Shown here one piece after another: positions 7,600-23,229 of a stretch of 25,707 nt of DNA. A model generated the notes under the pieces. It saw only the letters and a program-made list of their open reading frames with translations, had not been told where the DNA came from and made no database searches. Within the stretch, counting starts at the first letter, position 1. Every line of letters begins with the position of its first letter. Source of the DNA: a virus. Lineage: Duplodnaviria > Caudoviricetes. The stretch is from positions 1 through 25,707 of IMG/VR virus record IMGVR_UViG_3300024296_000385. One strand, 5' to 3'. The translations under genes and the position numbers were made by a program.

Positions 7600-8190
7600 A
7601 TGGCATTAGTACCAATGGTAGTTGAATCAACAAGCAAGGGCGAACGAGCTTATGATATCTACAGTAGATTATTAAAGGACAGGGTAATAATGCTCAACGG
7701 TCCTGTTGAAGATGTAAGTGCAAACCTTATTGTTGCACAGTTGTTATTCTTAGAGTCAGAAGATTCAGATAAAGCGATCTCGTTGTTTATTAATAGTCCA
7801 GGTGGTGTTGTAACTGCTGGCATGAGTATATATGATACAATGCAGTTTGTTAAGCCAGACATTGCAACATATGTTACTGGCCAAGCATGTAGTATGGGTA
7901 GCCTACTTGCACAAGCAGGTGCAAAAGGTAAACGTTATATGTTACCAAACGCAAGGCACATGATCCATCAGCCAAGCGGCGGTGCTAGAGGACAAGCAAC
8001 AGACATGCAAATACAAGTAGAAGAAATTTTAAAGATTAAGAAAGAGCTTACAGGTATCTACGAAAAACATAATAGTGCGGGCAAAACATTTGATGAGCTA
8101 AGTGCTGATATGGAACGTGATAACTTTATGACTGCACAAGAAGCAGTAGACTATGGCTTAGTTGATCAAATTATAGATAAACGTCCATGA
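7600..8190 (+). CDS. clpP: ATP-dependent Clp protease proteolytic subunit
   Basis: LVPMVVE...[26 protein letters not shown] (Ser), MIHQP (His), ERDNFM (Asp). Confidence 0.97.
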
Positions 8191-8570
8191 AGATAGTACC
8201 ACAGGGTAATAAGCAAACAGACTGGGGCATGGAGCTCAATTGGGCATCTAATGAATCATATGCAGGCAAACTATTAGTATTTGAAAAGCCTAATAAGAAA
8301 ACTGCAATGATGTTACATAAAACTAGACGTAAGAGTTGGTTTGTTAATTCAGGTAAGTTTAAGATTACATTTGTTGATATCAAGACAGGTCAAAGCAGAG
8401 AACAAGTTATTAAAGAAGGCAACACTATTGATATTGCTGAAATGACTCCACATCAATTAGAATCGTTAGATCATCATTCAATTATATTTGAATCAGGTAC
8501 TCCAGATTATGAAGATGATCAGTTTAGACTTAATCCTGGTGACGAGCAAACACAGCCTTCAGAGCAATAA
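8187..8570 (+). CDS. cupin, mannose-6-phosphate/sugar isomerase-like
   Basis: WGxELxW, YAGKLL, MMLH..R..SWFV..G, PHQLE motifs. Confidence 0.7.
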
Positions 8571-9735
8571 CTAAATCCTCAATCATTTTATCATCATGAT
8601 ACGGAGTAGGTGCAAACCGCAAACGTTCTGTACCTTCTTCTACTGTTGGATAGTTAATTGGCTGTACATAGATATCGTGTTCATCGATAAGCATATCACT
8701 CATTGACTTACACTTCTTAGCATCTCCTACAAGTACAGGAACAATGTGTGTAGTTGAACACTCCATTACTTGTATTCCGTTTGCTACTAATCTTTCTTTT
8801 AGTTTCTTCGCTTGTGTTTGGTGACTAACTCTAACTTCGTTATGATCTTTTAGGTATTTAATTGCAGCCATTGCGCCTGCACATGCAACCGGACTCATAC
8901 TAGTCGTGAAGATAAAACCAGAAGCTACTGAACGGATAGCATCAATAACGTCTGCATCAGCAGCAATGTAGCCACCTTGAACTCCAAAGGCCTTTCCGAG
9001 TGTGCCATTGATTATATCAATACGGTTTTGTAGTCCTAGTTTCTCCGTCCAGCCGCCTCCGTGTTCGCCATAAAGGCCAACAGCGTGTACTTCGTCAATG
9101 TATGTAATTGCATTATACTTGTCTGCAATGTTACATATTTCTTCCATCGGCGAAATATCTCCGTCCATAGAATAAACACTTTCAAATACTATACAAGGAG
9201 TTTGATTAGCAAGTACAGCGTTAGCACATAGTTCTTCTAGTTGACCCATGTCGTTGTGATGCCACACTTGCTTTTCTGCTTTACTGTGTCTAATACCTTG
9301 TATCAATGAAGCATGATTCTTACTGTCGCTTAAGAATACAATGTTAGGGAATATTCTTTTTAATGAAATAAGTGTCCATTCGTTTGCAACGTATGCAGAT
9401 GTAAACAGCAAGGACTTTGCTTTGTTGTGTAACGTACTAATCTCATGTTCCAACGCAACGTGGTAATGGCTTGTGCCACCTATGTTACGTGTACCTCCCG
9501 AGCCTGATCCTGTTTGGTCTAGGGCAGTATGCATAGCGTCTATGACAACCTTGTGCTGTCCCATGCCTAAGTAATCGTTACTACACCAATTAGTAATGTT
9601 TTTAATATTATAAGGTCCGTACCAGATAGCTCTAGGGAACTCGCCTCTTTCCCTAAGTATGTCGTTGAAAACCCTATAGTTGCCGCTATCTTTTAGGTTT
9701 TTTAGTAGTTTGTTTATTGGTTCTTTGTTTATCAT
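8530..9735 (-). CDS. hemA: 5-aminolevulinate synthase (Shemin/C4 pathway)
   Basis: [58 protein letters not shown] (PLP Lys), [18 protein letters not shown]. Confidence 0.96.
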
Positions 9736-9853
9736 GATAGAATAGTGTTCCCATTGAGTGATGGCATTGATACCAACCGTCTTTTCTTAGCTCGTCCATT
9801 AGGCTATTATATTCATTAGCCCATGTTTTAAAGAATTTAATTATGTTGTACAT
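9686..9853 (-). CDS. 55-aa leaderless ORF heading the hemA transcript (MYNIIKFF...)
   Basis: ATG exactly 5 nt downstream of TAAATA; overlaps the hemA start by 50 nt. Confidence 0.55.
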
Positions 9854-9858
9854 ACATG

Positions 9859-9873
9859 TATTTAACATAAATA
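9859..9873. promoter_or_regulatory. back-to-back divergent late promoter boxes
   Basis: TATTTA-ACA-TAAATA palindrome gives TAAATA on each strand, facing divergent genes. Confidence 0.6.
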
Positions 9874-9893
9874 ACAATATAGGAGAGCAAACA

Positions 9894-10157
9894 ATGGCAG
9901 CGAATGGTATATCAACTTTAGCACTTAAAAAGACTAGACAAGACACTAAATTAGCCAAAGCAGAAGCAAAACGTCAAGGCAAATCAGTTGCAGCTGACGG
10001 AACCATCTCTGGCAGTGTTGATACTGGCGCTGTATCATATAGAGCTCTTAACACATTGAATCTTGGCAGATTGCCTACAAGATATAATGCTTCAGATAAC
10101 AATGGTGCACTTACTGACTCTGCTGGTGTTCCAGTTGCTAGTCGTCCTTGGTCATAA
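9894..10157 (+). CDS. hypothetical phage protein (87 aa; start moved to MAANGIS), possibly virion-associated
   Basis: AGGAG RBS and late box upstream; Ala/Gly/Thr-rich. Confidence 0.7.
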   Translation: MAANGISTLALKKTRQDTKLAKAEAKRQGKSVAADGTISGSVDTGAVSYRALNTLNLGRLPTRYNASDNNGALTDSAGVPVASRPWS

Positions 10158-10209
10158 ACTTACCCTTTTTTAATAAATACGTATATAACTAATTAGGAGC
10201 GATAACGTT

Positions 10210-10638
10210 ATGTATGAGTATAGAGCCACGATCGTTAAGATTGTAGATGGCGACACTGTTGATGTAGATATTGATCTAGGCTTTGGTGTTGTTTTAAAAG
10301 ATGAAAGGGTACGTGTTATGGGAATTGATACACCAGAAAGTCGTACAAGAGATAAGGTAGAAAAGAAGTTTGGACTTGCTGCAAAGGCAAGACTAAAAGA
10401 GCTTCTAGGTAAGACAACTGTTTTGAAAACTCAGATTAATAGAAACGGTGAGGACATGAAAGGCAAGTTCGGTCGTATCTTGGGTGACTTTTCTACAGAA
10501 GACGGACGCATGATAACCGATATCATGGTAGAAGAAGGACATGCTGTAGCATACTTTGGTGGTAGCAAAGAAGAGATACAACTGAAGCATATGGCTAACA
10601 GAGAGAAATTACTCCGTGAAGGGGTAGTTGTTTTATAA
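10210..10638 (+). CDS. thermonuclease (SNase-like) family protein
   Basis: VDGDTVD, RVMGIDTPE, KFGRILG, EGHA motifs; ATAAATA at 10173-10179 and AGGAG RBS. Confidence 0.9.
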   Translation: MYEYRATIVKIVDGDTVDVDIDLGFGVVLKDERVRVMGIDTPESRTRDKVEKKFGLAAKARLKELLGKTTVLKTQINRNGEDMKGKFGRILGDFSTEDGRMITDIMVEEGHAVAYFGGSKEEIQLKHMANREKLLREGVVVL

Positions 10639-10649
10639 GGAGAAAGTAC

Positions 10650-11069
10650 ATGTTTAGATTAATTGCACTGTTATCACTAGTAATAGGTTTATGGGTAGTT
10701 CCTGCAACTGCAACTGGCGGAGTAATAGGAGCTCTTAATACTAACACTACCGAAGAGCCAGCACCAACACCACCAGGCCTACCGATGCCACCACAAGGAC
10801 AATATCAAACTTTACCTATAATGATTGACTGCGGCCGCTATGAAGATGTAGTAAGCATCATCATTAAAGCAGGCGAGCAACCTTTCGCAGCAGGTAAGAT
10901 ATTATTTAAAATTCCAGATGGTAGAGCAATAGAAGCAATATTAGAAATGTGGGCTAATCCGGAAACAAGAACTTTTACAAGCGTTCTTAAAGTAACTGAT
11001 GAATATGCCTGTTTAGTATTTCCAGGAAAAGAATTTATGGGTGCGCCACAACAGGGATTAACATTATAA
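10650..11069 (+). CDS. secreted/periplasmic hypothetical protein
   Basis: N-terminal signal peptide, Pro-rich linker, two Cys; AAGGAG RBS. Confidence 0.7.
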   Translation: MFRLIALLSLVIGLWVVPATATGGVIGALNTNTTEEPAPTPPGLPMPPQGQYQTLPIMIDCGRYEDVVSIIIKAGEQPFAAGKILFKIPDGRAIEAILEMWANPETRTFTSVLKVTDEYACLVFPGKEFMGAPQQGLTL

Positions 11070-11072
11070 ATA
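11065..11072 (+). promoter_or_regulatory. T4-like late promoter TATAAATA
   Basis: Exact T4 late consensus upstream of the lipase RBS. Confidence 0.65.
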
Positions 11073-11090
11073 AAAACATAGGAGCGAAAT

Positions 11091-11894
11091 ATGTTATCAG
11101 GAAAGTTAAAGAAAGGAATAGCAGAACTTACATTCAATCAAAGAAGTTTATTATTTGCTGAGCTATCAGCAATTGCATACTTAGATCCAAAAGATGCAAC
11201 AGCACAAGCAAAAGAGCTAGGCTTTACAACAGTAGAGTTTTATGATATCGACGGTGCTCAGGCTTATCGCTTTATGAATAAACACGATATGGTTATTGCA
11301 TGTCGTGGAACACAGCCAACAGAATACAACGATATTAAAGCAGACTTAAACGCTCTTCCTATTATTTCTGAAACAGTTTCTAGAGTACACAGAGGATTTA
11401 AAACAGAAGTAGACGAACTTTGGCCACATGTGAAAGAGGACATGGACCGTAAAGTTAATCTAAAGAAACAGCATTGGTTCTGTGGACATTCATTAGGTGC
11501 TGCAATGGCAACTATAATGGCTTCAAGATGTAAGCATAGTCCAGAACTAAGCGATCCTGTTGAACTTTACACATATGGTTCACCTAGAGTTGGATGGTCA
11601 GCATACTGCAACAGTTTAAATATTGACCATCATAGATTTGTAAACAACAACGACATAGTTACAACAGTACCACTATCAATAATGGGTTTCAAACATCATG
11701 GTACTTGTCATTACTTTAATTCATGGGGTAACCTACGTAAACTTTCGTTCTGGCAAAGAACAAAAGATAAGTTCCGTGGAATGTGGAGAGGACTAAAAGC
11801 ATTTAAAATAGATAACTTCTCGGATCATTCTATGGCAGAGTACATTGCACATTGTGATAAATTAGTAAAAGGAATGGAAACACCGCAAGTTTAA
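11091..11894 (+). CDS. lipase class 3 family protein
   Basis: IACRGT, VHRGF, GHSLGAA nucleophile elbow, YTYGSPRVG, NNNDIV, DHSM. Confidence 0.93.
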   Translation: MLSGKLKKGIAELTFNQRSLLFAELSAIAYLDPKDATAQAKELGFTTVEFYDIDGAQAYRFMNKHDMVIACRGTQPTEYNDIKADLNALPIISETVSRVHRGFKTEVDELWPHVKEDMDRKVNLKKQHWFCGHSLGAAMATIMASRCKHSPELSDPVELYTYGSPRVGWSAYCNSLNIDHHRFVNNNDIVTTVPLSIMGFKHHGTCHYFNSWGNLRKLSFWQRTKDKFRGMWRGLKAFKIDNFSDHSMAEYIAHCDKLVKGMETPQV

Positions 11895-11907
11895 CAAAAG
11901 GAGTTGG

Positions 11908-12558
11908 ATGTCGTTCTTAGTCCATAACTTACCGCCGCAAGAAGTATTTGTTAAAAAGGAATACTTATATGATCTACAAAAAGGTCATGGGGAACTCACG
12001 CCTGGGGTATGGATTTCAATTAGAAGTATAATGGGCAAAGCACTATATTTTGAAACACTCCTAACTGAGTACGGTGCATTGTACGATAAACTTCCTATAT
12101 CAGCATTTGTTTGGAAAGAAGATTACGATAAAGATAATCAACTTGATCTTGATACATTACAAATATGGGATTGCTTTGATTATGATATCACACTAATTAA
12201 AAAGCCTATGCTATCTAACTGCGAGTTCTTTGGCAAAGATAAGAAAATGCACAAAGGCGATTACATGTTTACACTTGATACATGTCATGCACAACACTCA
12301 ACACTTGATATTAATTTTAGCGAACACGATCCTGAACATAAAACATTTAACGTTATTAAGTTAGACAACGGACAGTTTGCAGCACAACCAAACAACAGAG
12401 TAATATTTACAGATCAAAGTCTAGTTCACCCGGAGCGTAAAATGCCAGACTTTAAAGTGTGTACACAAAACTACACAGTTGAGAACACACCTAAGTGGTC
12501 AGTAGGACATACTGACGAATGGCAATACAAAACGAAAGACGAAGAAAGTGGAAGATGA
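11908..12558 (+). CDS. conserved hypothetical protein (216 aa)
   Basis: AGGAG RBS; LPISAF, WDCF, EHK and NGQFAAQPNNR motifs recalled from marine phage proteins; function unknown. Confidence 0.75.
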   Translation: MSFLVHNLPPQEVFVKKEYLYDLQKGHGELTPGVWISIRSIMGKALYFETLLTEYGALYDKLPISAFVWKEDYDKDNQLDLDTLQIWDCFDYDITLIKKPMLSNCEFFGKDKKMHKGDYMFTLDTCHAQHSTLDINFSEHDPEHKTFNVIKLDNGQFAAQPNNRVIFTDQSLVHPERKMPDFKVCTQNYTVENTPKWSVGHTDEWQYKTKDEESGR

Positions 12559-12730
12559 CGAGAAAGAAGCCTATAGACTTTTTTGGTTAGTCAAAGGGCA
12601 TTTAAATACCTCACACGAAACTATAATATCATCATACGATGGTTACTTTAAAAGACTATGGGGTAACTGTGAACGTGCTGAATACGGTATGGAAGGCTTC
12701 GAAGAAGCATATAAAAAGAAAAGGGGTTGA
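12548..12730 (+). CDS. hypothetical protein (60 aa)
   Basis: GTG start overlapping the upstream gene. Confidence 0.6.
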   Translation: MEDDEKEAYRLFWLVKGHLNTSHETIISSYDGYFKRLWGNCERAEYGMEGFEEAYKKKRG

Positions 12731-12755
12731 CTTCTTTTTAAATTGGTGCTATAAT
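12727..12755 (+). promoter_or_regulatory. sigma70-type promoter
   Basis: TTGACT-N17-TATAAT with extended TGn. Confidence 0.85.
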
Positions 12756-12780
12756 ATAGGTACAATAGAAAAGGAGTTAT

Positions 12781-13377
12781 ATGAAATTGCGAGATAATAA
12801 AGTAATCTTAGTAGATGCAGACGGTGTCTTACTCGATTGGGAATGGGCATTTAATGTATGGATGGGCGAACAAGGTTTCGAAAGAATTGAAGGGTCGCAG
12901 TTCATTTATGATATAGGTGAGCGATACGGTATTCCAACAACACAATCAAAAAAACTTGTTAACATATTTAATAACAGTGCATGGATTGGATTTCTTCCAG
13001 GACTGAGAGATGCACAGTTTTATGTTAAGAAACTACACGAAGAATATGGATTTACATTCCATTTAATTACTTCACTATCCTTAGATAAAAATGCACAGAA
13101 ACTAAGAACAATGAATATAGATAAGTTGTTTGGAACAACAGCCTTTACAAAATATGTATACTTAGGAACTGGTGCAGACAAAGACGATGCACTTAAAAAG
13201 TATAAAGGCACAGGACTATATTGGGTTGAAGATAAACCTAAGAACTGTGAAGCAGGACTTGAACAAGGACTTAAACCTTTACTGATCGAACACGGCCATA
13301 ACATGGATTACAGACATGACGGTATTACTACAGTTAAGAACTGGAGACATATACACGATTTAGTAACTCATCCATAA
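12781..13377 (+). CDS. HAD-superfamily 5'(3')-nucleotidase-like protein (T4 gp30.2-like)
   Basis: DADGVLLDW (DxD), ITS, K and WVEDK HAD motifs I-IV. Confidence 0.8.
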   Translation: MKLRDNKVILVDADGVLLDWEWAFNVWMGEQGFERIEGSQFIYDIGERYGIPTTQSKKLVNIFNNSAWIGFLPGLRDAQFYVKKLHEEYGFTFHLITSLSLDKNAQKLRTMNIDKLFGTTAFTKYVYLGTGADKDDALKKYKGTGLYWVEDKPKNCEAGLEQGLKPLLIEHGHNMDYRHDGITTVKNWRHIHDLVTHP

Positions 13378-13430
13378 GTACGTAGTAATATAACTATATT
13401 CTTATAAGGCCCCACAAAAACATCTTTATC

Positions 13431-13478
13431 TATAAATAATATTAAGCACTTGACATTTAGTGTGTCAAGTGTTACTAT
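13431..13478 (+). promoter_or_regulatory. compound promoter for alkB: late box, sigma70 promoter and inverted repeat
   Basis: TATAAATA 13431-38; TTGACA-N17-TACTAT 13450-78; CACTTGACA-N7-TGTCAAGTG 13447-71. Confidence 0.75.
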
Positions 13479-13527
13479 GTTAATACATTGTGTGATTAAT
13501 AACCGCCGATAAGGCAGGAGGCATACA

Positions 13528-14592
13528 ATGAATAAACTTCTCGTAAACATAAGGTACTTCATTGCGCCATTGTTGATACTTGTTACACTCGTCGGAGTGT
13601 TAGCAGGTGGAGCGTGGGCATGGACAGGTGTAGGCTTATTGGGAGTAGGCATTATACTTGACACTCTTATCAATGTTCAAACTCGTGGAGCAGTTGATGA
13701 GAACGGAGAGACCTTGGGAATCCCCTGGTTACAGAATACAGTAATGTATTTGATGTTACCGGTCTTTGTTGCACTTCAGTTGGCACTAGCATATCAGATC
13801 TATAATGGTATGGCAGGTGCAGAACTTTTAGGTGCTACACTATCAACAGGTATATTTGCAGGCATAGGCATAATCTATGGGCATGAACTATCTCACACCA
13901 AAGGCATTGCATTCGTAATAAGCCGTTGGATGATGGGACTATCAGGTTCAGCACATTTCTGTTATGCTCATGTGTACAATCATCACTTGGAATTAGCAAG
14001 TGAAGACGATCCTGCAACAGCACCTAGAGGACGTGATATCTATTCACACTATATCAAATCACACTTAGGACAATCTAAGTTCTTGTTTGAAATGGAGAGA
14101 GGTAGATTGAAACGTTTAGGTAAACCTTTCTTGTCCGTAGGTAATAGATGGATAAGAGGTTACATGATGAGTGTACCTACACTTGCATTGTTCTTCTTTG
14201 CAGGTGGTTGGTTAGGTGTCGCATGTATCGGACTTGTTTGGTTAATATCAAACTTCGAACTTGAAGCACTTAACTATCTAGAACACTATGGTTTAATTCG
14301 TGTTAAAAGCGAACCAATAGACTATAGACATTCCTGGGATAACTCAACATTATTCACAAGCTGGTTCTTCATAGAGATTGGTCGCCAGGCTGATCATCAT
14401 GACAGAGGTGAGACACACTTCTGGGAACTAGATGAAGTAGGTGCGCCTAACACAGGTGTAGGTTACTTTACACTCTTTGCGTTAGCACTGATACCTCCTG
14501 TGTTTAATAGCTTTATGAAAAAGCATTTAGACAATTGGGATAAAAACTTTGCAACCGAAGCAGAAAGAGAAATAGCAAAAACATTTGCGTAA
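13528..14592 (+). CDS. alkB: membrane di-iron monooxygenase, AlkB/XylM family
   Basis: His boxes HELSH, HVYNHH, NYLEHYG (AlkB-diagnostic HYG), QADHH; DPATAPRG; HSW; several TM helices. Confidence 0.9.
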   Translation: MNKLLVNIRYFIAPLLILVTLVGVLAGGAWAWTGVGLLGVGIILDTLINVQTRGAVDENGETLGIPWLQNTVMYLMLPVFVALQLALAYQIYNGMAGAELLGATLSTGIFAGIGIIYGHELSHTKGIAFVISRWMMGLSGSAHFCYAHVYNHHLELASEDDPATAPRGRDIYSHYIKSHLGQSKFLFEMERGRLKRLGKPFLSVGNRWIRGYMMSVPTLALFFFAGGWLGVACIGLVWLISNFELEALNYLEHYGLIRVKSEPIDYRHSWDNSTLFTSWFFIEIGRQADHHDRGETHFWELDEVGAPNTGVGYFTLFALALIPPVFNSFMKKHLDNWDKNFATEAEREIAKTFA

Positions 14593-14599
14593 TCTTTGG

Positions 14600-14625
14600 G
14601 GGTGTCGGCAACGGCACCCTTTTTT
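14600..14625 (+). terminator. rho-independent terminator after alkB
   Basis: GGGTGTCG-GCAA-CGGCACCC followed by a T tract. Confidence 0.9.
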
Positions 14626-14626
14626 C

Positions 14627-14662
14627 TTGACAAGACTTTCTTTTAGTGTTACATTATAAATA
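14627..14662 (+). promoter_or_regulatory. sigma70 promoter overlapping a late box
   Basis: TTGACA-N17-TACATT with TGn, then TATAAATA 14655-62. Confidence 0.7.
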
Positions 14663-14755
14663 ATGATGGAACAATTAAGTTTCTGGCAGGCAACGTTGAG
14701 CCTGCTCTTATTATGTGAGCGCCGTGGTAAAAGCGGCAAGCAGAGGAGATAATAA

Positions 14756-15715
14756 ATGGACGCACTCACCCTATGGATGGGGATAGGATTCTTATTTGCA
14801 GCCTATTCAGTAATAGCAAATGATTCAGTACAGACTTTAGGTACATGGATTGCATCAAATAACGATAAATTTAACTGGAAAACTATGTGGGGAGCGGCAA
14901 GTGTAGTCTTGCTATATACCCTATGGTATGGTTGGTACATGAACGGTGGAGACATCAGCTATGGACGACTTAATAAAATACCATTCCAAGAGATACAATG
15001 GTATCATGCGGCAGCACCAGGATTACTATTAATACTTACACGGATAGGAGTACCAGTTAGTACTTCTTTTTTAGTATTAAGTGCCTTTGCAAGTACGTTT
15101 GTACTAGAAAAGATGCTTATGAAAAGCATGATGGGTTATGCTGTGGCGGCTGTGGCAGCATATGTTATTTGGATAGGAGTTACTAAACTCTTAGACGAAG
15201 CAAAGCCTTTCAAAGAAGAACACAAGAATCGTTGGCGCATAGCACAATGGTTCACAACAGGCTTCTTATGGTTCACTTGGCTGAGTCATGACATGGCGAA
15301 CATTGCAGTGTTCCTACCTAGAGAGATACCCTGGGACCTTATGGTATTAGTAAGTCTTGTATTTGTATTTGGCTTAGGATATATGTTCCGTGAAGGCGGA
15401 GGTAAGATACAAAATATTGTAATTGAAAAGCACAACACAAGATATGTTCGTAGTGCTACAATTATTGATGGTGTGTATTGGTTGTGCTTATGGTTCTTCA
15501 AAGAGCTCAATGATATTCCAATGTCAACAACATGGGTGTTTGTAGGACTACTATGTGGTAGAGAACTTGCTATGGCAACTATGACAGGCAAGGAAAAGTT
15601 CAAGACAGTGTTTCCGTTGGTCACTAAAGACTTCTTCAAGATGATGATAGGCCTAGGTGCATCAGTTGGAGTAGTATTGATGATACACTATGTAATTGTA
15701 CCAAATGGATATTAA
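14756..15715 (+). CDS. multi-pass membrane protein, PiT/PHO4-like phosphate/sulfate permease relative
   Basis: About 9-10 TM segments; IANDSVQT and SHDMANIA resemble the two PiT GxND/HxxNDxAN signatures; PVSTS and PMSTT repeats. Confidence 0.65.
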   Translation: MDALTLWMGIGFLFAAYSVIANDSVQTLGTWIASNNDKFNWKTMWGAASVVLLYTLWYGWYMNGGDISYGRLNKIPFQEIQWYHAAAPGLLLILTRIGVPVSTSFLVLSAFASTFVLEKMLMKSMMGYAVAAVAAYVIWIGVTKLLDEAKPFKEEHKNRWRIAQWFTTGFLWFTWLSHDMANIAVFLPREIPWDLMVLVSLVFVFGLGYMFREGGGKIQNIVIEKHNTRYVRSATIIDGVYWLCLWFFKELNDIPMSTTWVFVGLLCGRELAMATMTGKEKFKTVFPLVTKDFFKMMIGLGASVGVVLMIHYVIVPNGY

Positions 15716-16305
15716 TGGAAAACAATAATCAAATAAAAGAGTTTTACCCATACACTTGGGTAAAACCTAAATACCAACAATCAGCACAAGACTGCTTCAA
15801 TGAGATAGATTCGTATCTTAGTTTTCATCCTCCTAAACGTATATTAGATATCGGTTGCGGCTATGCATATGTTAGTGAGCAGTTTCAGAAGAAGTACGGA
15901 ACCGAACTATGGCTGCTTGAAGGAGACTTTCAAACTACTATTGACAGACCGCGAAAAGCAACATGGGGTGAAGTAGAAGACTTTAAGTTTTATCTTCCAG
16001 TTGCAGACTTAAAAGAATATTGGAATTCGAGAGGAATCAAATATAACTTTGTTGATGCTAACAATATAAACATACCCGAAGGTATGACATTTGATCTAGT
16101 TAGTAGTTGGCTAAGTTGTGGCTTTCACTACCCTGCTAAGACTTATAAAAGTTTAGTAGAAAAACATACAACCAGTGATAGTAAAGTTATCTTTGATTTT
16201 AGAACAAAGACACTACTTAATCAACAAAGCCAAGACATAAAAGTTATACACAATTTCAACCCAAGTGGAGGAAAAAGATCACGAGTTCACTTTAATTTTT
16301 CTTGA
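15715..16305 (+). CDS. class I SAM-dependent methyltransferase
   Basis: ILDIGCGYA motif I and FDLV; TAATG-coupled to the transporter. Confidence 0.8.
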   Translation: MENNNQIKEFYPYTWVKPKYQQSAQDCFNEIDSYLSFHPPKRILDIGCGYAYVSEQFQKKYGTELWLLEGDFQTTIDRPRKATWGEVEDFKFYLPVADLKEYWNSRGIKYNFVDANNINIPEGMTFDLVSSWLSCGFHYPAKTYKSLVEKHTTSDSKVIFDFRTKTLLNQQSQDIKVIHNFNPSGGKRSRVHFNFS

Positions 16306-16330
16306 CTTAAAGAACTTTTTGTAATATTAT
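16302..16330 (+). promoter_or_regulatory. sigma70-type promoter for prs
   Basis: TTGACT-N17-TATTAT. Confidence 0.7.
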
Positions 16331-16364
16331 ATAAGTACAACATAACACCAAGAAAGGACTACAT

Positions 16365-17324
16365 TTGAAAATGAAAATTATCTCAGGAAACGCTAACAAA
16401 CCATTAGCACAAGAGATTGCAGAACAATGTTTTGCTACCCTCGTCCCCGCAAATATTTCAACTTTCGCAGATGGAGAATCAAACGTAGAGTTTTTAGAAA
16501 ACGTTAGAGGCGAAGATGTTTTTATTATTCAAAGTACAAGCACACCAGTAAACGATAGTCTTATGGAACTGATGGTTATGATTGATGCAGCACGTAGATC
16601 AAGTGCTAGTCGTATTACAGCAGTTATTCCATACTATGGTTATGCTAGGCAAGATCGTAAGAGCGCAAGTCGTACTCCTATTACTGCTAAGTTAGTTGCT
16701 AACTTAATTACAACAGCTGGTGCAGACAGAATACTTACAATGGATTTACATGCAGGACAGATACAAGGTTTCTTTGACATCCCAGTGGATGATTTAACAA
16801 GCCGTGTAGTATTTGCTAAAGACATTAAACGCACAATAGGTATCATTGACGACCCTGAAGTTAATCAACAAGGAACAGTATTTGTATCGCCAGACGCAGG
16901 TGGTGCAGTTAGAGCTCGTAAGTTTGCAGACATGTTTACAGGCGACATTGCTATTGTAGATAAAATGCGACCTGAAGCAGGTAAGTCAGAAGTAATGAAT
17001 ATCATTGGTGATGTTAAAGGCAAACATGCTATCCTAGTAGATGATATCGTTGACTCAGGTGGAACATTATGTAAGGCAGCACAAGCAATTATGAAAGCTG
17101 GTGCATTGAGTGTTAGAGCATATATTACTCATGGTGTACTATCAGAAGATGCATGTCAAAAAGTTGAGAAGAGTGTACTCGATGAACTAGTTGTTACTAA
17201 TACTATTATAAATCGTTGCCCTAAGGGTTGTAAGAAAACACGTCAAGTAAGTGTTGCTCCATTACTTGGAGAAGCAATGCGTAGAATAACTAATGAAGAA
17301 TCAGTTAGCAGTCTTTTTGTTTAA
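16365..17324 (+). CDS. prs: ribose-phosphate pyrophosphokinase (start may be ATG 16371)
   Basis: FADGE, PYYGYARQDRK, MDLHAGQIQGFF, VSPDAGG, VDDIVDSGGT. Confidence 0.97.
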   Translation: MKMKIISGNANKPLAQEIAEQCFATLVPANISTFADGESNVEFLENVRGEDVFIIQSTSTPVNDSLMELMVMIDAARRSSASRITAVIPYYGYARQDRKSASRTPITAKLVANLITTAGADRILTMDLHAGQIQGFFDIPVDDLTSRVVFAKDIKRTIGIIDDPEVNQQGTVFVSPDAGGAVRARKFADMFTGDIAIVDKMRPEAGKSEVMNIIGDVKGKHAILVDDIVDSGGTLCKAAQAIMKAGALSVRAYITHGVLSEDACQKVEKSVLDELVVTNTIINRCPKGCKKTRQVSVAPLLGEAMRRITNEESVSSLFV

Positions 17325-18156
17325 GTAATTCCCTAGCACCGTAAGTAATCATATAAGAAGCACCAGCACGTTTAAAAACATCATGTGTTTCTTTTAACAT
17401 CTCAGGAACTAACCAACCATTACGTTGTAGACCAATGTACTCGCCGCTTGTTTGAAAAACACCTACAGGAACAGAATATCCTGTTGCTTCCTTAATAGGC
17501 CTAATAAGATCAATACTGGTCATACCTGGCTTTACCATTAACATATCAGCACCGTCTCTGTGATATTTTTGACTACGACAAATTGCAAGTTCTCTGTCAT
17601 TTACATCTAATTGATAACTTCTGTGTATTCCTTTTTCAACACCAATAGTTTGTCTAAACCCATCATAGAAAGTTGATCTAAACTTTGTTGAATAGCTCAT
17701 TACTTTTGCTTTTAGATTTTCTTTAAGTACTAACACAGTTTGGTCTTGACAGTCACTAGGTGCTAATACATCTGCTCCTGCTTTGTGTACAACAGTTGCT
17801 TGTTGAAGTAGTTGATCGTACGTTTTATTCATGTCCTCAGGATAGCAACAATGCCCATCTAGCGTAGTAGAACACAAACATATATCAACATGCAAGTTTA
17901 CTTTATCTCCGTGTACTGCTTTAATTTCGCTAACAACACGCTTGTTTAATTCCCAATCAGGAGAGTCTGTTCTGTCTGGCATAACAAATATTAAGATGTC
18001 TTTGACACCTAGTATGATATCCCTACCAATAGTATCTATTGCACCTTTAACTGACCAAGGGTGGTTATCATTACCAAGTACAGATTGCTTAGTTGCCTTT
18101 ATCCAATCATCACCGTTAGTCTGATTGTTAATAAAGTAAGGTTGTATCAGCCTCAT
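17305..18156 (-). CDS. hemB: porphobilinogen synthase (ALA dehydratase), Zn-type, N-terminally shortened
   Basis: DICLCSTTLDGHC Cys triad, APSD, MSYSTKF and MVKPG Schiff-base lysines, RSYQL, FQTSGEY, RAGA. Confidence 0.9.
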   Translation of the reverse strand: MRLIQPYFINNQTNGDDWIKATKQSVLGNDNHPWSVKGAIDTIGRDIILGVKDILIFVMPDRTDSPDWELNKRVVSEIKAVHGDKVNLHVDICLCSTTLDGHCCYPEDMNKTYDQLLQQATVVHKAGADVLAPSDCQDQTVLVLKENLKAKVMSYSTKFRSTFYDGFRQTIGVEKGIHRSYQLDVNDRELAICRSQKYHRDGADMLMVKPGMTSIDLIRPIKEATGYSVPVGVFQTSGEYIGLQRNGWLVPEMLKETHDVFKRAGASYMITYGARELLKQKDC

Positions 18157-19130
18157 TCAAATCTTTCCCTAACCATGTCTACAAATAGTTTTACGTTGTC
18201 CTCTGGTGTCTCTTTATGTATGCCATGTCCTAGTCCGCATATCCAACCAGTTCTATCAATACGCTCCATGCTGTCAAGCCATTCCGATATTTCTTTCTTT
18301 AGGTATAGCCCAGGTGTCATCATTAACTTCTCATCGAAGTTGCCTTGTATAAATCCATCTTGGTATTTCTTAAACGTTCTGTGTATATCAACTGCACTAT
18401 CAATACCTAATCCTGCCCAACCCATTCTATACAGTGTAGGTAAACACTTATGATTTAGATGTTGTGTATAGTATCCTGTATCAGAATCTATTAGTGGTTG
18501 TAATAGATTAACGTAATGTGTTTTAAAGAAAGACTCACTCATGTTAGCCACACCACTATCAAGTATCATAACTTTCTCTGCACCTGCTTCTAGTTGTAAA
18601 TGTATGTTACGTGATAGCACAGGAACAATTACTTCTTCCATGTACGCTGCTTTCCATTTTAAATCCATGTTAGGTTTTTTACCTGTAGCATAATTTAACA
18701 ATGTCCATGGGCCGCCTACAAATCCTATTAGGCTTTTTGATTTATGTAGTTTCTCTCTAGTTGCAGAAACAGCAGCTTTCTGAAAGTGCATGTGTTCTAC
18801 TGCACGTGAAACGTTCTTATGATCTTTATAGTTGTCTTCGTTGATGTACCATTCAAACTGTGGACCTGGTGCAAACTTTAAAGGCACACCTAGTCCTTCA
18901 ATAGGAAATAGTATGTCGCTAAACAGTATTGCAATATCAAAATCAAATTGATCAATTGGTAGCATTGCTACATCAGCAGCCACCCTAGGTAACTTACACA
19001 TTTGTTCAAAGGTAAACTTCTCTTTCATCTCCATATAAGGTTGCTGATATCTTCCAGCTTGTCTCATCATCCATATCGGAGGGCAAGACTGTTCTACCCT
19101 ATTGCAGGCATTTTCAAATTTTTCATTCAT
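18153..19130 (-). CDS. hemE: uroporphyrinogen decarboxylase
   Basis: PIWMMRQAGRY, AILFSDIL, IGFVGGPWTL, QGNFD, LGHGI...TP. Confidence 0.95.
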   Translation of the reverse strand: MNEKFENACNRVEQSCPPIWMMRQAGRYQQPYMEMKEKFTFEQMCKLPRVAADVAMLPIDQFDFDIAILFSDILFPIEGLGVPLKFAPGPQFEWYINEDNYKDHKNVSRAVEHMHFQKAAVSATREKLHKSKSLIGFVGGPWTLLNYATGKKPNMDLKWKAAYMEEVIVPVLSRNIHLQLEAGAEKVMILDSGVANMSESFFKTHYVNLLQPLIDSDTGYYTQHLNHKCLPTLYRMGWAGLGIDSAVDIHRTFKKYQDGFIQGNFDEKLMMTPGLYLKKEISEWLDSMERIDRTGWICGLGHGIHKETPEDNVKLFVDMVRERFE

Positions 19131-19948
19131 ATAAGTTTCGTTCCTAGTTGTTCGCCAAGTTCTAGATAGTTTTCTTTCTTACCTATTACTTCACTGTACT
19201 TATCTGTTTCGAAGTTGTGAGCTCTAATCATTAAACAGTCACCAACAACACTAGATATACAACCAACCGCAGTATGACAGTCTCCGTCTATAACTTCAAG
19301 CATCTTACGTTCAGCCATTGCTCCTTTATACGTGTCTGCATCAGACGAACTGTTTAACAAATAACTTGCGGAACTTTTCTTTCTTGTTTGTAATGCTATA
19401 ACACCTTGACCAACTGCTGGTAACATTTCGTCAAAGTTAAATATCTTTGTTATCTTATGTTCTAATCCTAATGCTTCTAGTCCTGCAACAGCAAGTACAA
19501 TAGCATCATACTGTCCGCTTTCTACTTTAGAAATACGTGTGTCAATATTTCCTCTAATAGAAACTATCTCTGCATCTGGATATAATCTTTTTAGTTGTGC
19601 AATTCTGCGAGGACTACCTGTTCCTATCTTTGCACCTAATTTTGTAGGATCACCTATTACACAATCTCTAGGATCGCTACGATCTAGTACTGCTGATATC
19701 TCAAGAACATCATCTGAGTCTCTTGGTAAATCTTTTAAACTATGAACAGCAATATCAATTTCGTTATCTAATAACTTCTGCTCAATGGCCTTACAAAATA
19801 CTCCCTTGCCGCCCATTTCTAATATAGGCGTGTCTGGATTAATTTCTGCTTCTGTTTTTATCGTAACAATCTCTGGGTCACTTATTAGAGCCGCTGCTCT
19901 ACTTGCATACTGCAATGCTAGTTTACTTCCTCTAACGCCTATCTTCAT
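19127..19948 (-). CDS. hemC: hydroxymethylbilane synthase (porphobilinogen deaminase)
   Basis: GVRGSKLAL, GGKGVF, AVHSLKDLP, GTGSPRR, IRGNIDTR, PAVGQG, GDCHTAVG cofactor Cys. Confidence 0.95.
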   Translation of the reverse strand: MKIGVRGSKLALQYASRAAALISDPEIVTIKTEAEINPDTPILEMGGKGVFCKAIEQKLLDNEIDIAVHSLKDLPRDSDDVLEISAVLDRSDPRDCVIGDPTKLGAKIGTGSPRRIAQLKRLYPDAEIVSIRGNIDTRISKVESGQYDAIVLAVAGLEALGLEHKITKIFNFDEMLPAVGQGVIALQTRKKSSASYLLNSSSDADTYKGAMAERKMLEVIDGDCHTAVGCISSVVGDCLMIRAHNFETDKYSEVIGKKENYLELGEQLGTKLI

Positions 19949-20021
19949 TTCTAACCTTCCTTATGACCCAAGCAATGAATGCTAAGATAGCAGCAGTTAA
20001 TGCACCTATCCCAATGTTCAC
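19932..20021 (-). CDS. 29-aa single-TM micropeptide (MNIGIGALTAAILAFIAWVIRKVRNEDRR)
   Basis: GTG start overlaps the hemF stop (GTGA); the stop lies inside the hemC 5' end; ~19 hydrophobic residues then a basic tail. Confidence 0.55.
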   Translation of the reverse strand: MNIGIGALTAAILAFIAWVIRKVRNEDRR

Positions 20022-20836
20022 GGCCAACTCACATCTGGCGGTAAGCTCATTAAGATTGCTTCCATGTTACCACCTGTTTTAAAACCAAACTTAGTTCCAC
20101 GATCATATAATAAGTTGAACTCTACATATCGTCCACGTTTGATCTTTTGTATATCTTTATGCTCGTCTGTGTAGTTGTTGTTCATATAGTTAATTGCAGT
20201 TGTTCTCATTACATCTGCAAACTTAATGCCCATACGTTCTACAAATTTAAAGTCCATGTCCTCTGGTGAATAGTATTCAAAGAACAAACCTCCGATACCT
20301 CTTGTTTCTTTTCTGTGTGGCAAGTAAAAGTATTCATCACATGCTTTACTAAACTTATCGTACCAAGTTGTATCATATAAATCACAAATCTTTTTAAGCT
20401 CTTGGTGATACTTTACTTTAAACTTCTCGTCATCTAAGCAAGGAGTTAGATCCATACCACCACCAAACCATTCTTTGTCGTGTGTCTTAAGGTATCTTGT
20501 GTTGAAGTGCATTGCTGGTACCCAAGGATTAGTAGGGTGCAATACTACACTTATACCTGTGGCATAGTACTCTCTATTCTCATCAGTTGTGCCTGGAATC
20601 TCTTTTGCAAATTTTGGATCAAACTCTCCAGTAACACACGAGTAATTTACTGTACCTTTTTCAAATACGTTTCCACGTATAACTTTGTGTGTTTGAGTCC
20701 ATCCCTCTCTGCTTGAATGTCCACCTTGGTCCATTTTAATAGGATCTTTGGGTGTAAATCTAGCTTCTACTTCATTGATGTTATCTTCTATAATTTGCGC
20801 AAGTTGTGCAAACCATTCAGTATACAATGTGTTCAT
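20018..20836 (-). CDS. hemF: oxygen-dependent coproporphyrinogen III oxidase
   Basis: VFEKG.VN, ATGIS, HPTNP, MHFNTRY, WFGGGMDLTP, RGIGGLFF, RGRYVEFNLLYDRGTKFG, ILMSLPP. Confidence 0.97.
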   Translation of the reverse strand: MNTLYTEWFAQLAQIIEDNINEVEARFTPKDPIKMDQGGHSSREGWTQTHKVIRGNVFEKGTVNYSCVTGEFDPKFAKEIPGTTDENREYYATGISVVLHPTNPWVPAMHFNTRYLKTHDKEWFGGGMDLTPCLDDEKFKVKYHQELKKICDLYDTTWYDKFSKACDEYFYLPHRKETRGIGGLFFEYYSPEDMDFKFVERMGIKFADVMRTTAINYMNNNYTDEHKDIQKIKRGRYVEFNLLYDRGTKFGFKTGGNMEAILMSLPPDVSWP

Positions 20837-20841
20837 GGCAG

Positions 20842-20847
20842 TATTTA
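20842..20847 (-). promoter_or_regulatory. late promoter box 5 nt before the hemF ATG (leaderless)
   Basis: TAAATA-CTGCC-ATG with no SD between the terminator and the start codon. Confidence 0.6.
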
Positions 20848-20857
20848 AGTTGCACTC

Positions 20858-20889
20858 AAAAAGAAAGGCAGCAACCTGGCTACCTTTCT
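20858..20889 (-). terminator. rho-independent terminator upstream of the hem operon
   Basis: AGAAAGGTAGC-CAGGTT-GCTGCCTTTCT followed by TTTT on the minus strand. Confidence 0.8.
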
Positions 20890-20979
20890 CCCCTTCAAAT
20901 GTAATGTTCCTTAATCTTTTGGCTATGCCGTTTTTTGTATCTTCATCCTGATATTAGGAAACTATATTTGTGTATTTTT

Positions 20980-21249
20980 TTACTTTGAGGTCCCTGTTAC
21001 GAACTTGTAAAACTCCTCGGCTGTTTCTAAAACTTCTTTAGAACCTGGAATTTCTGGCATATCGACTTTGTTAAGTACTTGTCCAGTTTTTTCGTCACGC
21101 TTTGCAGATACTTCCCAACCCATCCACTTGTTTGAATATTCAAACTCTGTAAATGCTTTGGCCATGTCTAGCACTTCTGTGCGAATTTCGTAACCGTTTT
21201 TATTGAATTGCACTTTAGGCAGTGCGTCCTTGATTTTGTCTAATGACAT
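20980..21249 (-). CDS. conserved hypothetical phage protein (89 aa)
   Basis: NGYEIR..VL.MAK...P....VL..A..FY.FV pattern recalled from T4-like phage proteins; AAGGAG RBS with CA-rich leader. Confidence 0.75.
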   Translation of the reverse strand: MSLDKIKDALPKVQFNKNGYEIRTEVLDMAKAFTEFEYSNKWMGWEVSAKRDEKTGQVLNKVDMPEIPGSKEVLETAEEFYKFVTGTSK

Positions 21250-21282
21250 TTTACTTCTCCTTGTGTGTGTTGTGTGTTATGC

Positions 21283-21320
21283 TACATTAATAATGTAACA
21301 CTATTATTTACCTTTGTCAA
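21283..21320 (-). promoter_or_regulatory. sigma70 promoter with embedded late box and palindrome
   Basis: TTGACA-N17-TACATT with TGn; TAAATA at 21305-10; TACATTA-A-TAATGTA palindrome 21283-97. Confidence 0.65.
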
Positions 21321-21468
21321 CGCACTTAATGATTTTTCTTTTCCAAACACCTGCGTTGTAGGTGCCGCAAACCATTTATGCTATGTTTGCTCTCAGAAGC
21401 ACACACCTAAATATTACACTGACTTCAACGCTTGAGTGTTGTCAGGAAACAAGAAGGAGATAACCAAT

Positions 21469-21702
21469 ATGGAAATCTTAAATAAAGTAAAGGGTTGGGC
21501 GAGTGCAATTACCGAAGTAGGTGTTTCACTTATTTCATTAGCAATCGTTCTTGAAATCCTATTCAACGGACAGAACATTCCGTTCTGGCCAAACATCAGC
21601 GTAGTAGACAACATTACTGGAATGATAACAGCGTTATCAGCACAGGGCTTAGTTGGGTTAGTAGCTGTATGGGTGTTATATCATATCTATAATCGCAAAT
21701 AA
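21469..21702 (+). CDS. small two-TM membrane protein (77 aa; start moved to MEILNK)
   Basis: AAGGAG RBS; TAAATA at 21408-13; two hydrophobic helices. Confidence 0.75.
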   Translation: MEILNKVKGWASAITEVGVSLISLAIVLEILFNGQNIPFWPNISVVDNITGMITALSAQGLVGLVAVWVLYHIYNRK

Positions 21703-21727
21703 AAATATTTCATAACACAAAGAAGTT

Positions 21728-21770
21728 ATGGCAGAGCCGTCTTGGCGGACAGCTCTGTCATTTTTTATTT
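21728..21770 (+). terminator. terminator hairpin between convergent genes
   Basis: ATGGCAGAGC...GCTCTGTCAT stem followed by a T tract. Confidence 0.7.
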
Positions 21771-21965
21771 TACTTTCAAATTCGATGGATTATATTGTTC
21801 ACCATTATAACCTGGATATGTTTTATCTTCAACTCCAAAGTTACAACTAGCAACAATTAATAAAAATGCAATAGCGGTATAAGTTGTACGTTTCGACCAC
21901 AGTATGAAATTAGCAAACGCTTTCTCAGCCTGTGCTTGAGCCGTCGCCCTTACATCACTTTCCAT
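21765..21965 (-). CDS. aa3-type cytochrome c oxidase subunit IV-like protein (CtaH/COX4_pro_2-like)
   Basis: QAEKAFANFILWSK + one TM + N parallels the alphaproteobacterial subunit IV pattern (Q/H)ExTFxGFI..TM..N. Confidence 0.55.
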   Translation of the reverse strand: MESDVRATAQAQAEKAFANFILWSKRTTYTAIAFLLIVASCNFGVEDKTYPGYNGEQYNPSNLKVK

Positions 21966-22002
21966 TAATCCATTCAGCTTCGTCTTCGGTGTATGGCCAC
22001 AT
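21955..22002 (-). CDS. 15-aa micropeptide MWPYTEDEAEWINGK
   Basis: ATG overlaps the upstream stop (TAATG); fills the gap and overlaps the next start. Confidence 0.45.
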   Translation of the reverse strand: MWPYTEDEAEWINGK

Positions 22003-22256
22003 TATGCATGTCCTTTCCAAAATGCTACAGACTTTGACTTTCCTCTAAAGTAATGATCACCAGGCTCGTAGTTAGACTTGGCTTTCTTTACTCTTTCTAG
22101 TCTTTCAATTGCTCTACGCTTAACATTTCTTAAACGCTCTTGCTCGACTAATAAGTCTTTCGCTAACGTTGGGTAACCTTGTAAACGCATTAGATTTGCA
22201 GCTCTACCGTAACCAGCAATCTCTAAGTTGTTATACAGTTTTGTTATCAAAAGCAT
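22002..22256 (-). CDS. small basic protein with GxxRAAN...GY motif (84 aa)
   Basis: GGAGAG RBS; paralogous motif with the neighbouring ORF. Confidence 0.7.
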   Translation of the reverse strand: MLLITKLYNNLEIAGYGRAANLMRLQGYPTLAKDLLVEQERLRNVKRRAIERLERVKKAKSNYEPGDHYFRGKSKSVAFWKGHA

Positions 22257-22455
22257 TATCTCTCTCCGTCATCAGTTTCTTAGCCTCATTTAAATAACCC
22301 ATACGGGCAAGTTCATTAGCAGCTCTAGCACGACCTGCTGTTTCGCCAAAGGCAATTGTACCAACCCAAAATGCAAACAAAGCATTTCTGATAATGGTAC
22401 AAAGTTTACATGTAAAGTTCCATGTGGTTTGTGTTATCGCAGTCATTATACCCAT
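22231..22455 (-). CDS. small protein with GxxRAAN...GY motif (start may be ATG 22446)
   Basis: GRARAANELARMGY..AK.L; TAATG coupling at 22446. Confidence 0.7.
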   Translation of the reverse strand: MGIMTAITQTTWNFTCKLCTIIRNALFAFWVGTIAFGETAGRARAANELARMGYLNEAKKLMTERDNAFDNKTV

Positions 22456-22706
22456 CCTCTTAAATTCTTATTTGTAGTTGCAGTCATTCTCTTATCTTGG
22501 AAGTTACCTCTAGCAATACTTTCAATATCGCTACGGCCAATTCCTAAATCTTTTAGTTCATGATCTGTAAGGTTGCGTAATTCTCTACGAGTTGTTGCAA
22601 TCATAGCCTTGCGTGCTCTGTTGCGTCTCCATTGTTTAACTAAGTCTACAAGTCCTTCTAAAGCATCTTGCAGCAAGTGTGATACTGTCATAATTGCTTG
22701 TGTCAT
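22446..22706 (-). CDS. DUF1127 (YjiS-like) small protein
   Basis: WRR.R....TRRELRNLTDHELKDLGIGRSDI is the DUF1127 consensus; ends N.NLRGWV. Confidence 0.9.
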   Translation of the reverse strand: MTQAIMTVSHLLQDALEGLVDLVKQWRRNRARKAMIATTRRELRNLTDHELKDLGIGRSDIESIARGNFQDKRMTATTNKNLRGWV

Positions 22707-22885
22707 TAGTTCTTCACTCCCATTTTAGGACCGCGTCCTTCGTGGGTCATCATATAGTGATAAGCATAATACCAATCACTTCCGTACTCAGTTTTGGCGT
22801 AAGTGAGCATCTCTTTTTCGAAAGTCCTAGTCGGACTTGGGTTTCCAAGTAAACTCACAAGGCCATTGAATAGCATGGTTGCCAT
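22706..22885 (-). CDS. 59-aa hypothetical protein (MATMLFNG...YAKTEYGSDWYYAYHYM...)
   Basis: AAGGAG RBS; TAATG-coupled to DUF1127; below the ORF-track cutoff. Confidence 0.75.
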   Translation of the reverse strand: MATMLFNGLVSLLGNPSPTRTFEKEMLTYAKTEYGSDWYYAYHYMMTHEGRGPKMGVKN

Positions 22886-22910
22886 TTTTTTCTCCTTGAT
22901 TAAGTTTTGT

Positions 22911-23045
22911 GGATGCTTGAGGAAAGCAATACCCCGGAACTTCCCCGGCGGTGCGTGAACCTTTGGTCCCCGTCAATCACTTGTAAGGCATGGACAATGC
23001 CCCAGTCTTTCCTGGTGTCTGTATGTATATTTCGACAACTTCGAA
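22911..23045 (-). ncRNA. candidate structured leader RNA/sRNA upstream of the DUF1127 operon
   Basis: GC-rich non-coding tract with six short hairpins, downstream of TATAAATA. Family not recognised. Confidence 0.55.
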
Positions 23046-23078
23046 GGTTCCGACTGTCACCTTGCGCTTTGTCACCTG

Positions 23079-23086
23079 TATTTATA
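23079..23086 (-). promoter_or_regulatory. T4-like late promoter TATAAATA
   Basis: Exact consensus ~190 nt upstream of the first ORF of the DUF1127 operon. Confidence 0.65.
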
Positions 23087-23178
23087 TAATAGTACAGTAT
23101 TACTGCCCTAATCAGAGCGGTTTTTCATGCAAGGCTGTCATGCAATTTTTGCAACAATAAGTTGATAAATTAAAGTTC

Positions 23179-23229
23179 TTGACAGCCGTAAATCATTGTT
23201 GTATAATTTGTTACGTAAAAGGGTAAATA
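23179..23229 (+). promoter_or_regulatory. perfect sigma70 promoter followed by a late box
   Basis: TTGACA-N17-TATAAT 23179-23207; TAAATA 23224-29. Confidence 0.85.

Follow-up and report, generated by a model that had tools for sequence, protein, structure and literature searches.

Five heme-biosynthesis genes in a fragment of a putative T4-like marine jumbo phage

The closest described system is the phage 5-aminolevulinate (ALA) synthase vAlaS, which is active, complements an E. coli ALA auxotroph and occurs in hemO-pcyA/X-alaS cassettes (Wegner et al. 2024, PMC11480375). In other reports, large phages from freshwater carry ALA synthase together with ho1 and pcyX (bioRxiv 2020.02.13.942896), viral alaS transcripts come from an estuary (PMC13390420), and one sentence records coproporphyrinogen oxidase and porphobilinogen deaminase in the marine T4-like phage PMP-MAVG-4 (Zaragoza-Solas et al. 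2020, PMC7029224); the accessible parts of two further papers name no more than a porphyrin category and heme oxygenase (PMC10732071 and PMC13720004). Here, we analysed a stretch of 25,707 nt listed as a virus record (IMGVR_UViG_3300024296_000385), hereafter the window. Its minus strand carries hemA and, as a separate unit 7.6 kb away with plus-strand genes between, hemF, hemC, hemE and hemB (Table 1). We propose that the phage drives the soluble steps of heme synthesis with deregulated enzymes while the host's HemD, HemJ and HemH fill in the rest, so as to sustain heme. We give this reading a probability of roughly 0.7.

The lineage of the window shares several traits with the published vAlaS, which form a virus-only clade, lack His342/Cys400 and stand with heme oxygenase and bilin reductase. 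What the window adds is an operon of four enzymes: the accessible text of that study contains neither hemB, hemC, hemF nor coproporphyrinogen, and its 11 accessible supplements contain none of five enzyme names searched for (PMC11480375). With PMP-MAVG-4 the window has hemF and hemC in common, whereas hemB and hemE are not named in the accessible account of that phage (PMC7029224). A complete 177-kb T4-like genome (G006) resembles the description of PMP-MAVG-4; the HemC and HemF of the window share 41% and 49% identity with their G006 counterparts, and the window's lineage is larger, about 350 kb. The novelty implied by the preliminary description of this DNA was overstated, since phage ALA synthase had been published as active and hemF with hemC had been noted. 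Yet, neither phage hemE nor phage hemB nor a set of all five genes turned up in the literature searched, a result whose coverage leaves out subscription papers and other supplementary tables of auxiliary metabolic genes that may list such genes. Within the searches made, these five biosynthetic steps would be the largest viral heme-pathway set and would add mid-pathway steps to the validated vAlaS. A tblastn search of INPHARED with HemE, HemA, HemF and HemB revealed no cultured carrier with a close homologue; it returned only 25-38% matches, which we discarded as phage homologues because they resemble paralogues of the BioF/Kbl type or host sequence within phage submissions.

All five open reading frames (ORFs) are intact and match their Pfam families far above cut-off (aminotransferase I/II, ALAD, URO-D, porphobilinogen deaminase and coproporphyrinogen oxidase). 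The NCBIfam cut-offs are passed by HemA (576.8 vs 338.55 bits), HemC (267.7 vs 164) and, barely, HemF (298.8 vs 297). The recognisable catalytic motifs reported earlier from the sequence are indeed kept. HemA retains the pyridoxal-phosphate lysine, K248. In HemE, R23, R27, D72, Y147 and H302 are invariant in 9/9 viral sequences, and we take these arginines, aspartate, tyrosine and histidine to be functional. HemC, which has no fused HemD, keeps the invariant D73, R114, R115 and C224, presumably including the cofactor cysteine and the catalytic aspartate, and the HemF family motifs could be located in the window protein. In HemB, C93/C95/C103, K158 and K209 are invariant in 25/25 aligned sequences, and the cysteine triad is present in 67 of 68 proteins of the short family; we take the triad to bind zinc and the two lysines to be the Schiff-base lysines. 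All five genes are under purifying selection, with ratios of nonsynonymous to synonymous change (dN/dS) of 0.02-0.14 in 12/12 gene pairs between the window and its relatives, by simple counting. The four genes of the hemF unit also lie close together, though less tightly than had been described: hemC shares 4 nt with hemE, as hemE does with hemB, but 69 nt separate hemF from hemC. A hydrophobic mini-ORF of 29 codons spans this gap; it is open with synonymous changes in five of the six relatives examined and absent in one (L021), where hemF and hemC almost touch.

Two of the enzymes appear to have shed regulatory features. In HemA the heme-feedback positions of Rhodobacter capsulatus, His342 and Cys400, are occupied by K341 and H399. 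Since both positions are changed, as in many published vAlaS (PMC11480375), the enzyme would make ALA free of heme feedback. The predicted fold of HemB has a mean predicted local distance difference test score (pLDDT) of 90.6 and a template-modelling score of 0.88 to E. coli porphobilinogen synthase (1B4E/1I8J). It shares with this zinc-type enzyme the triose-phosphate isomerase barrel, the cysteine triad and the two lysines, but lacks the N-terminal arm of about 30 residues. Only 2 residues precede the first barrel strand in the window protein and in 51 of the 68 short-family proteins (6-13 in 15, 2 unscored), against 27-40 residues in 30 of 47 full-length HemB proteins (17 unscored). The hinge of this arm decides between octamer and hexamer and forms the allosteric interface (PMC7729013). 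For this reason, armless zinc HemB would make porphobilinogen without an arm-dependent octamer/hexamer switch; it probably works as a dimer. As a natural variant, it could show whether porphobilinogen synthase depends on the arm and the octamer to be active. No counterpart of the window HemB was found in the viral structure library BFVD. In some phages (L071, L106) a short hemB stands immediately downstream of the gp23 capsid gene.

We take the window to be viral because of its relatives and its listing as a virus record. Pfam and PHROG scans of its proteins found no capsid, portal or terminase gene; PHROG did match a DNA ligase and, once, a 'virion structural protein'. Scanning IMG/VR for HemF yielded 25 loci, which include many near copies and do not amount to 25 species. 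The order F-C-E-B is found in 11 of them, with phage-type neighbours and 82-100% identity; the others read E-F-C (8), F-C-E (4) or F-C (2). In L014, hemE-F-C is flanked by a gp46-like gene and by T4 baseplate and portal genes. Another relative, G676, is a 98% complete genome of 353 kb with gp23 above cut-off and portal and terminase matches. It has 13 of 33 tested window genes at 26-75% identity, including the hemA-cupin-clpP-ligase neighbourhood, and encodes HemA, heme oxygenase and bilin reductase. The recurrence of the operon and these relatives bear out the earlier reading of the context as that of a phage and support a contig that is viral and not chimeric. G001 (107 kb, 31% complete) is closer still, its Hem proteins being 91-97% identical to those of the window. 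Besides all five hem genes it encodes heme oxygenase and bilin reductase at a distance of some 30 kb from hemF, which makes seven tetrapyrrole genes; another relative, G002, is rated 17% complete. G006 encodes hemA, hemF-B-C, heme oxygenase and bilin reductase, with no hemE match. CheckV estimates on relatives suggest that the window is a fragment, about 7%, of a T4-like marine jumbo phage of about 350 kb. Together with the virus-specific clades described below and purifying selection, these neighbours agree with the idea that the genes are functional auxiliary metabolic genes of the heme branch.

The set, earlier labelled a pathway, covers five of eight heme steps and is not a complete one; its genes are optional and seem to have been captured separately, as a mosaic. 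Pattern scans of viral stretches found 153 short HemB, 154 HemE and 500 HemA, of which the best 80 of each were kept; within flanks that are often short, a further hem gene occurs at 24/80 HemB, 40/80 HemE and 6/80 HemA loci. F-C-E-B is an optional mosaic insert, and hemA is far more widespread in viruses than this block. Most relatives do not need the full hem set; the lineage of the window has the fullest set seen.

The absence of hemD, protoporphyrinogen oxidase and hemH from the window, noted before, holds for hemD, hemJ and hemH in a Pfam scan. Pfam HEM4 had no match in 10 viral records, ferrochelatase and HemJ none in 5 viral records each, and HemG and HemY none in the Pfam scans that covered them. 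In the nearest cellular operons HemD is a tail on HemC that Pfam misses. For a model of this tail the top 12 Foldseek ranks are all uroporphyrinogen III synthases; a profile-profile comparison with ordinary HemD gave no match, so that the fold search alone identified it. Because Pfam misses this tail, we repeated the HemD search with the cryptic type. The profiles gave matches in cellular controls and none in the IMG/VR pattern scans, 5 records, 210 overlapping loci (2.95 Mb), 153 further loci and the genomes G676, G678 and G679. The proposed search of the rest of the genome for hemD, hemJ and hemH is thereby answered in part: none is in the window or the viral records searched, the window being some 7% of its genome. 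Two candidates for HemD were rejected, a 277-aa cysteine-containing ORF in or beside F-B-C cassettes (L063:3451-4281 and five similar loci), for which the lead is U32-peptidase-like, and three profile matches at E 0.04, which are one 96-aa peptide without HemD likeness. The compact cellular heme operons in which a HemC of 492-509 aa carries this divergent HemD tail were seen in small-genome alphaproteobacteria (L352:10498-11118 and L350, L351, L385, L386, L388-L390).

Our proposal starts from what was observed directly: the genes are intact and keep their catalytic residues, selection on them is purifying, their context is viral and the two units share a motif upstream. The five enzymes would act together, likely late in infection, moving carbon from glycine and succinyl-CoA to protoporphyrinogen IX. 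HemA would make ALA without heme feedback, armless zinc HemB porphobilinogen, and HemC the bilane, which host HemD would cyclise. HemF acts on the type III isomer, so HemD is needed. HemE and HemF would then draw uroporphyrinogen III to heme, away from siroheme or B12, and host HemD, HemJ and HemH would supply ring closure, the oxidase step and iron insertion. The heme might sustain host respiration and, in relatives having them, also feed the phage heme oxygenase and bilin reductase. For marine bacteria, in which iron and respiration are important, the steps kept and omitted might show where heme supply is limited during infection. For a bacteriochlorophyll purpose, suggested earlier, we found nothing in favour, the downstream tetrapyrrole genes in the close relative being only heme oxygenase and bilin reductase.

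Several points weigh against this proposal. HemB and HemE fall below their NCBIfam cut-offs (169.9 vs 297 bits, and 210.2 vs 302.95 bits for TIGR01464) and are divergent for that reason, and the catalytic activity of the five window proteins is a prediction, the assayed enzyme being a homologous vAlaS (PMC11480375). The genomes G676, G678 and G679 carry hemA with no match to hemB, hemC, hemE or hemF, and no second hem gene lies nearby in 40/80 hemE, 56/80 hemB and 74/80 hemA viral loci. With about 7% of this phage and 31% of G001 in view, reliance on host HemD, HemJ and HemH is predicted. An alphaproteobacterial host is no more than plausible. Finally, late timing would follow from a likeness to T4 late promoters, and TAAATA by itself is not enriched in the window (28 vs 36.8 expected).

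Might the heme be made for something else? If the main aim were bilin production or iron release, the five enzymes would feed the phage heme oxygenase and ferredoxin-dependent bilin reductase, not respiration. These two genes accompany the hem genes in G001, about 30 kb from hemF, and hemA in G006 and G676; a heme oxygenase gene directly follows hemF-hemB in L062, and hemO-pcyA/X-alaS cassettes are published (PMC11480375). Yet, no iron is gained on balance when heme is made only for breakdown, G676 has heme oxygenase, the reductase and hemA but none of the middle enzymes, and no bilin-binding target was identified, so that we hold this aim to be unlikely. The product might also be porphyrin itself, with overflow into copro- or protoporphyrin serving as a photosensitiser that aids lysis or as a metal chelator. 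Overexpression of vAlaS does cause porphyrin build-up and light sensitivity in E. coli (PMC11480375), HemD, HemJ and HemH are missing in every viral record searched, HemA and HemB have lost regulatory features, and the late-type motif precedes the hem units. But HemE and HemF drain early intermediates rather than accumulate them, the isomer that HemF requires implies host HemD, single-gene carriage is common, and the membrane and iron steps may just not be limiting. We regard overflow as quite improbable, somewhat more so than the bilin aim. There is in addition a tentative, more far-reaching version of our proposal, which we think has well under an even chance: marine jumbo phages may have assembled a tetrapyrrole regulon that escapes normal control, out of enzymes that were captured one by one and trimmed (AlaS without feedback, HemB without the arm and probably dimeric, a short HemC) and that share a single late promoter motif. 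Exactly HemD/HemJ/HemH would be left out, and lineages like that of the window would encode as many as seven steps between glycine and bilin; the overflow of porphyrin or bilin may then be a function in itself.

Other explanations deny the genes a role in the phage. They could be neutral cargo lately acquired from hosts, as their patchy presence and shuffled order would allow; this is largely refuted, and very improbable, given dN/dS of 0.02-0.14 and the position of every gene in a deep virus-only clade, with best cellular identities of only 40-58%. The least credible alternative, to which we attach almost no weight, is that the contig is cellular or a phage/host chimera. The lack of capsid, portal and terminase genes in the window and the similar compact heme operon of small-genome bacteria speak for it. 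Against it stand the 11 IMG/VR records with the same gene order, the shared genes of G676, an even GC content (36-43%) and the lack of a close HemE in a pattern scan of GTDB genomes. Moreover, one contig of run X3, which may be the source sample, covers 17018-20952 with 2 differences; all 14 DNA runs with the operon (labelled seawater, marine or viral metagenomes) are possible sources and were not counted as independent.

From where were these genes captured? The per-gene phylogenies called for earlier indicate a mosaic of viral clades. They are quick trees with midpoint roots and composition warnings (also long-branch warnings for the HemE tree and the enlarged HemB tree), with support from Shimodaira-Hasegawa-like approximate likelihood ratio tests (SH-aLRT). 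Almost all genomes sampled were alphaproteobacterial. Rows were thinned at 80-90% identity, 35 of the alphaproteobacterial HemA rows were random picks, and G055 served as one background row in the HemB trees; no conclusion depends on G055 or G254. For HemE, 18 of 19 viral sequences fall inside a clade of small-genome operons (SH-aLRT 100). All 17 viral HemB form one clade, sister to the half-arm operon type (SH-aLRT 96, then 98 with 51 database hits added). In contrast, viral HemC (16/16) and HemA (4/4) form clades among ordinary alphaproteobacterial types, apart from the operon type, and the HemF tree left the donor placement unresolved. This suggests that HemB and HemE derive from the compact heme operon of small-genome bacteria, and HemA and HemC from ordinary alphaproteobacterial types. 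Because the two pairs group with different cellular types, at least two bacterial donors are likely. A second, independent viral HemE capture (L072:3719-4708) is sister to an alphaproteobacterial genome of 27% GC.

Profile searches point to the same cells. Of 121 alphaproteobacterial genomes, three small ones gave the strongest matches to the viral HemB profile (E 1e-79 to 1e-85, against 1e-56 or weaker in the others). In a set of 401 alphaproteobacteria, the HemE profile singled out 9 small genomes, 8 of which have a compact heme operon of the form hemA / hemCD-(B)-E-(H)-F-J; operon-type HemE occurs across the family of one of them, G223 (49 of 61 genomes with a match), and was absent from a 221-genome phylum sample. 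These low-GC alphaproteobacteria (G045, G069, G130, G223, G241, G287, G353, G370) likewise cluster the Shemin/HemF route, and among the cellular proteins sampled theirs come closest to phage HemB and HemE. They differ from the phage in having HemD fused to HemC, HemJ and often HemH, and phage HemC and HemA group elsewhere. Their HemB arm is already halved in four, within a gradient from full (G069, G241) through 12-17 residues (G287, G130, G045) to none in most viral sequences; G223 and G370 have no hemB in the stretch examined. Other pointers to the host were less telling. Ribosomal S21 and omega of G001 are not diagnostic, and a search with phosphoribosyl pyrophosphate (PRPP) synthase gave no match at a threshold that was too strict. 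The AlkB-like gene of the window was rejected as a pointer: it matches G069/G241 at 59% among the 401 alphaproteobacteria, yet database matches at 66-69% include Methylophaga.

The hemF and hemA units, 11 kb apart, share an upstream motif. TAA[AG]TA-N5-ATG opening an ORF of at least 30 aa occurs only twice in the window, heading these two units. The spacing of 5 nt is found in 26 of 40 ORF-leading TAAATA sites across 16 related loci, and the motif lies within 250 nt upstream of 24/74 viral hemA genes versus 0/74 in an in-gene control; in the L021 lineage it is absent ahead of hemF. We take TAAATA to resemble the T4 late promoter, by which analogy the two units would be switched on jointly, late and leaderless. 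Promoters had earlier been placed among the ORFs; in 8000-23500 the number of sigma-70-like sites, 48, does not exceed the 51.4 expected by chance, although the best ones are intergenic. The hairpin behind the upstream gene shows two-sided changes in 4 stem pairs among the 7 aligned loci, and a simple terminator scan did not list it. RNA libraries contain near-identical contigs over hemA, hemB, hemE, hemF and other window parts, at most a weak hint of expression, as they give neither strand nor level and DNA carry-over is possible. The small ORF at the start of hemA, whose relatives carry a His-His or His-x-His motif, could have a role in translation coupling or heme sensing.

Table 1. Heme genes and associated elements of the window
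Feature	Position	Strand	Basis or remark
hemA, 5-aminolevulinate synthase (viral AlaS type), 401 aa	8530..9735	-	TIGR01821 above cut-off; aligned to R. capsulatus 2BWN
ORF of 55 aa overlapping hemA start, His-His motif	9686..9853	-	conserved 38-100% in relatives
TAAATA, 5 nt ahead of ATG of 55-aa ORF; putative late-promoter-like motif of hemA unit	9859..9864	-	
hemB, zinc-type porphobilinogen synthase of the short form lacking the N-terminal arm, 283 aa	17305..18156	-	PF00490; predicted fold
hemE, uroporphyrinogen decarboxylase, 325 aa	18153..19130	-	PF01208 E 1.8e-62
hemC, hydroxymethylbilane synthase, shortened C-terminal domain, 273 aa	19127..19948	-	TIGR00212 above cut-off
mini-ORF, 29 codons, one hydrophobic stretch and basic tail, overlaps hemF stop and hemC start	19932..20021	-	25 aa in relatives
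hemF, oxygen-dependent coproporphyrinogen III oxidase, 272 aa	20018..20836	-	PF01218 E 2.5e-81; NF003727
TAAATA, 5 nt ahead of hemF ATG, no Shine-Dalgarno; putative late-promoter-like motif	20842..20847	-	
terminator-like hairpin and T run, between operon and upstream gene	20858..20888	-	kept in 7/7 aligned loci

Some neighbouring features deserve mention. Between an 89-aa gene and the terminator (~20905-20965, minus strand) lie a small hairpin, GGATGAAG and GCATAGC, kept in 7/7 aligned loci; Rfam gave no match anywhere in the window. Further upstream, at 21765-22885 (minus strand), a run of five small ORFs, one a DUF1127 protein, varies among close relatives. The plus strand carries an AlkB-like alkane monooxygenase/desaturase gene (13528-14592) with many close relatives and cellular matches at 66-69%, a gene for an unassigned hydrophobic protein of 319 aa (14756-15715) whose counterpart stands directly after hemE in L023, and a PRPP synthase gene (16365-17324) convergent with hemB. 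G001 (L030-L033) has a large cluster of radical S-adenosylmethionine and 2-oxoglutarate-Fe(II) oxygenase genes, and also encodes curli CsgF/CsgG, ribosomal protein S21, RNA polymerase omega, ClpS, 3-deoxy-D-manno-octulosonate 8-phosphate (KDO8P) synthase and guanosine monophosphate (GMP) reductase. In another phage a gene for ribosomal protein L7/L12 lies just 3' of hemC (L063:6719-7078). A DUF454 gene, which encodes a YbaN-like membrane protein, is a frequent neighbour of hemA, hemB or hemE in viruses (L019, L044, L072, L091, L113), including 18 of the 80 hemA loci.

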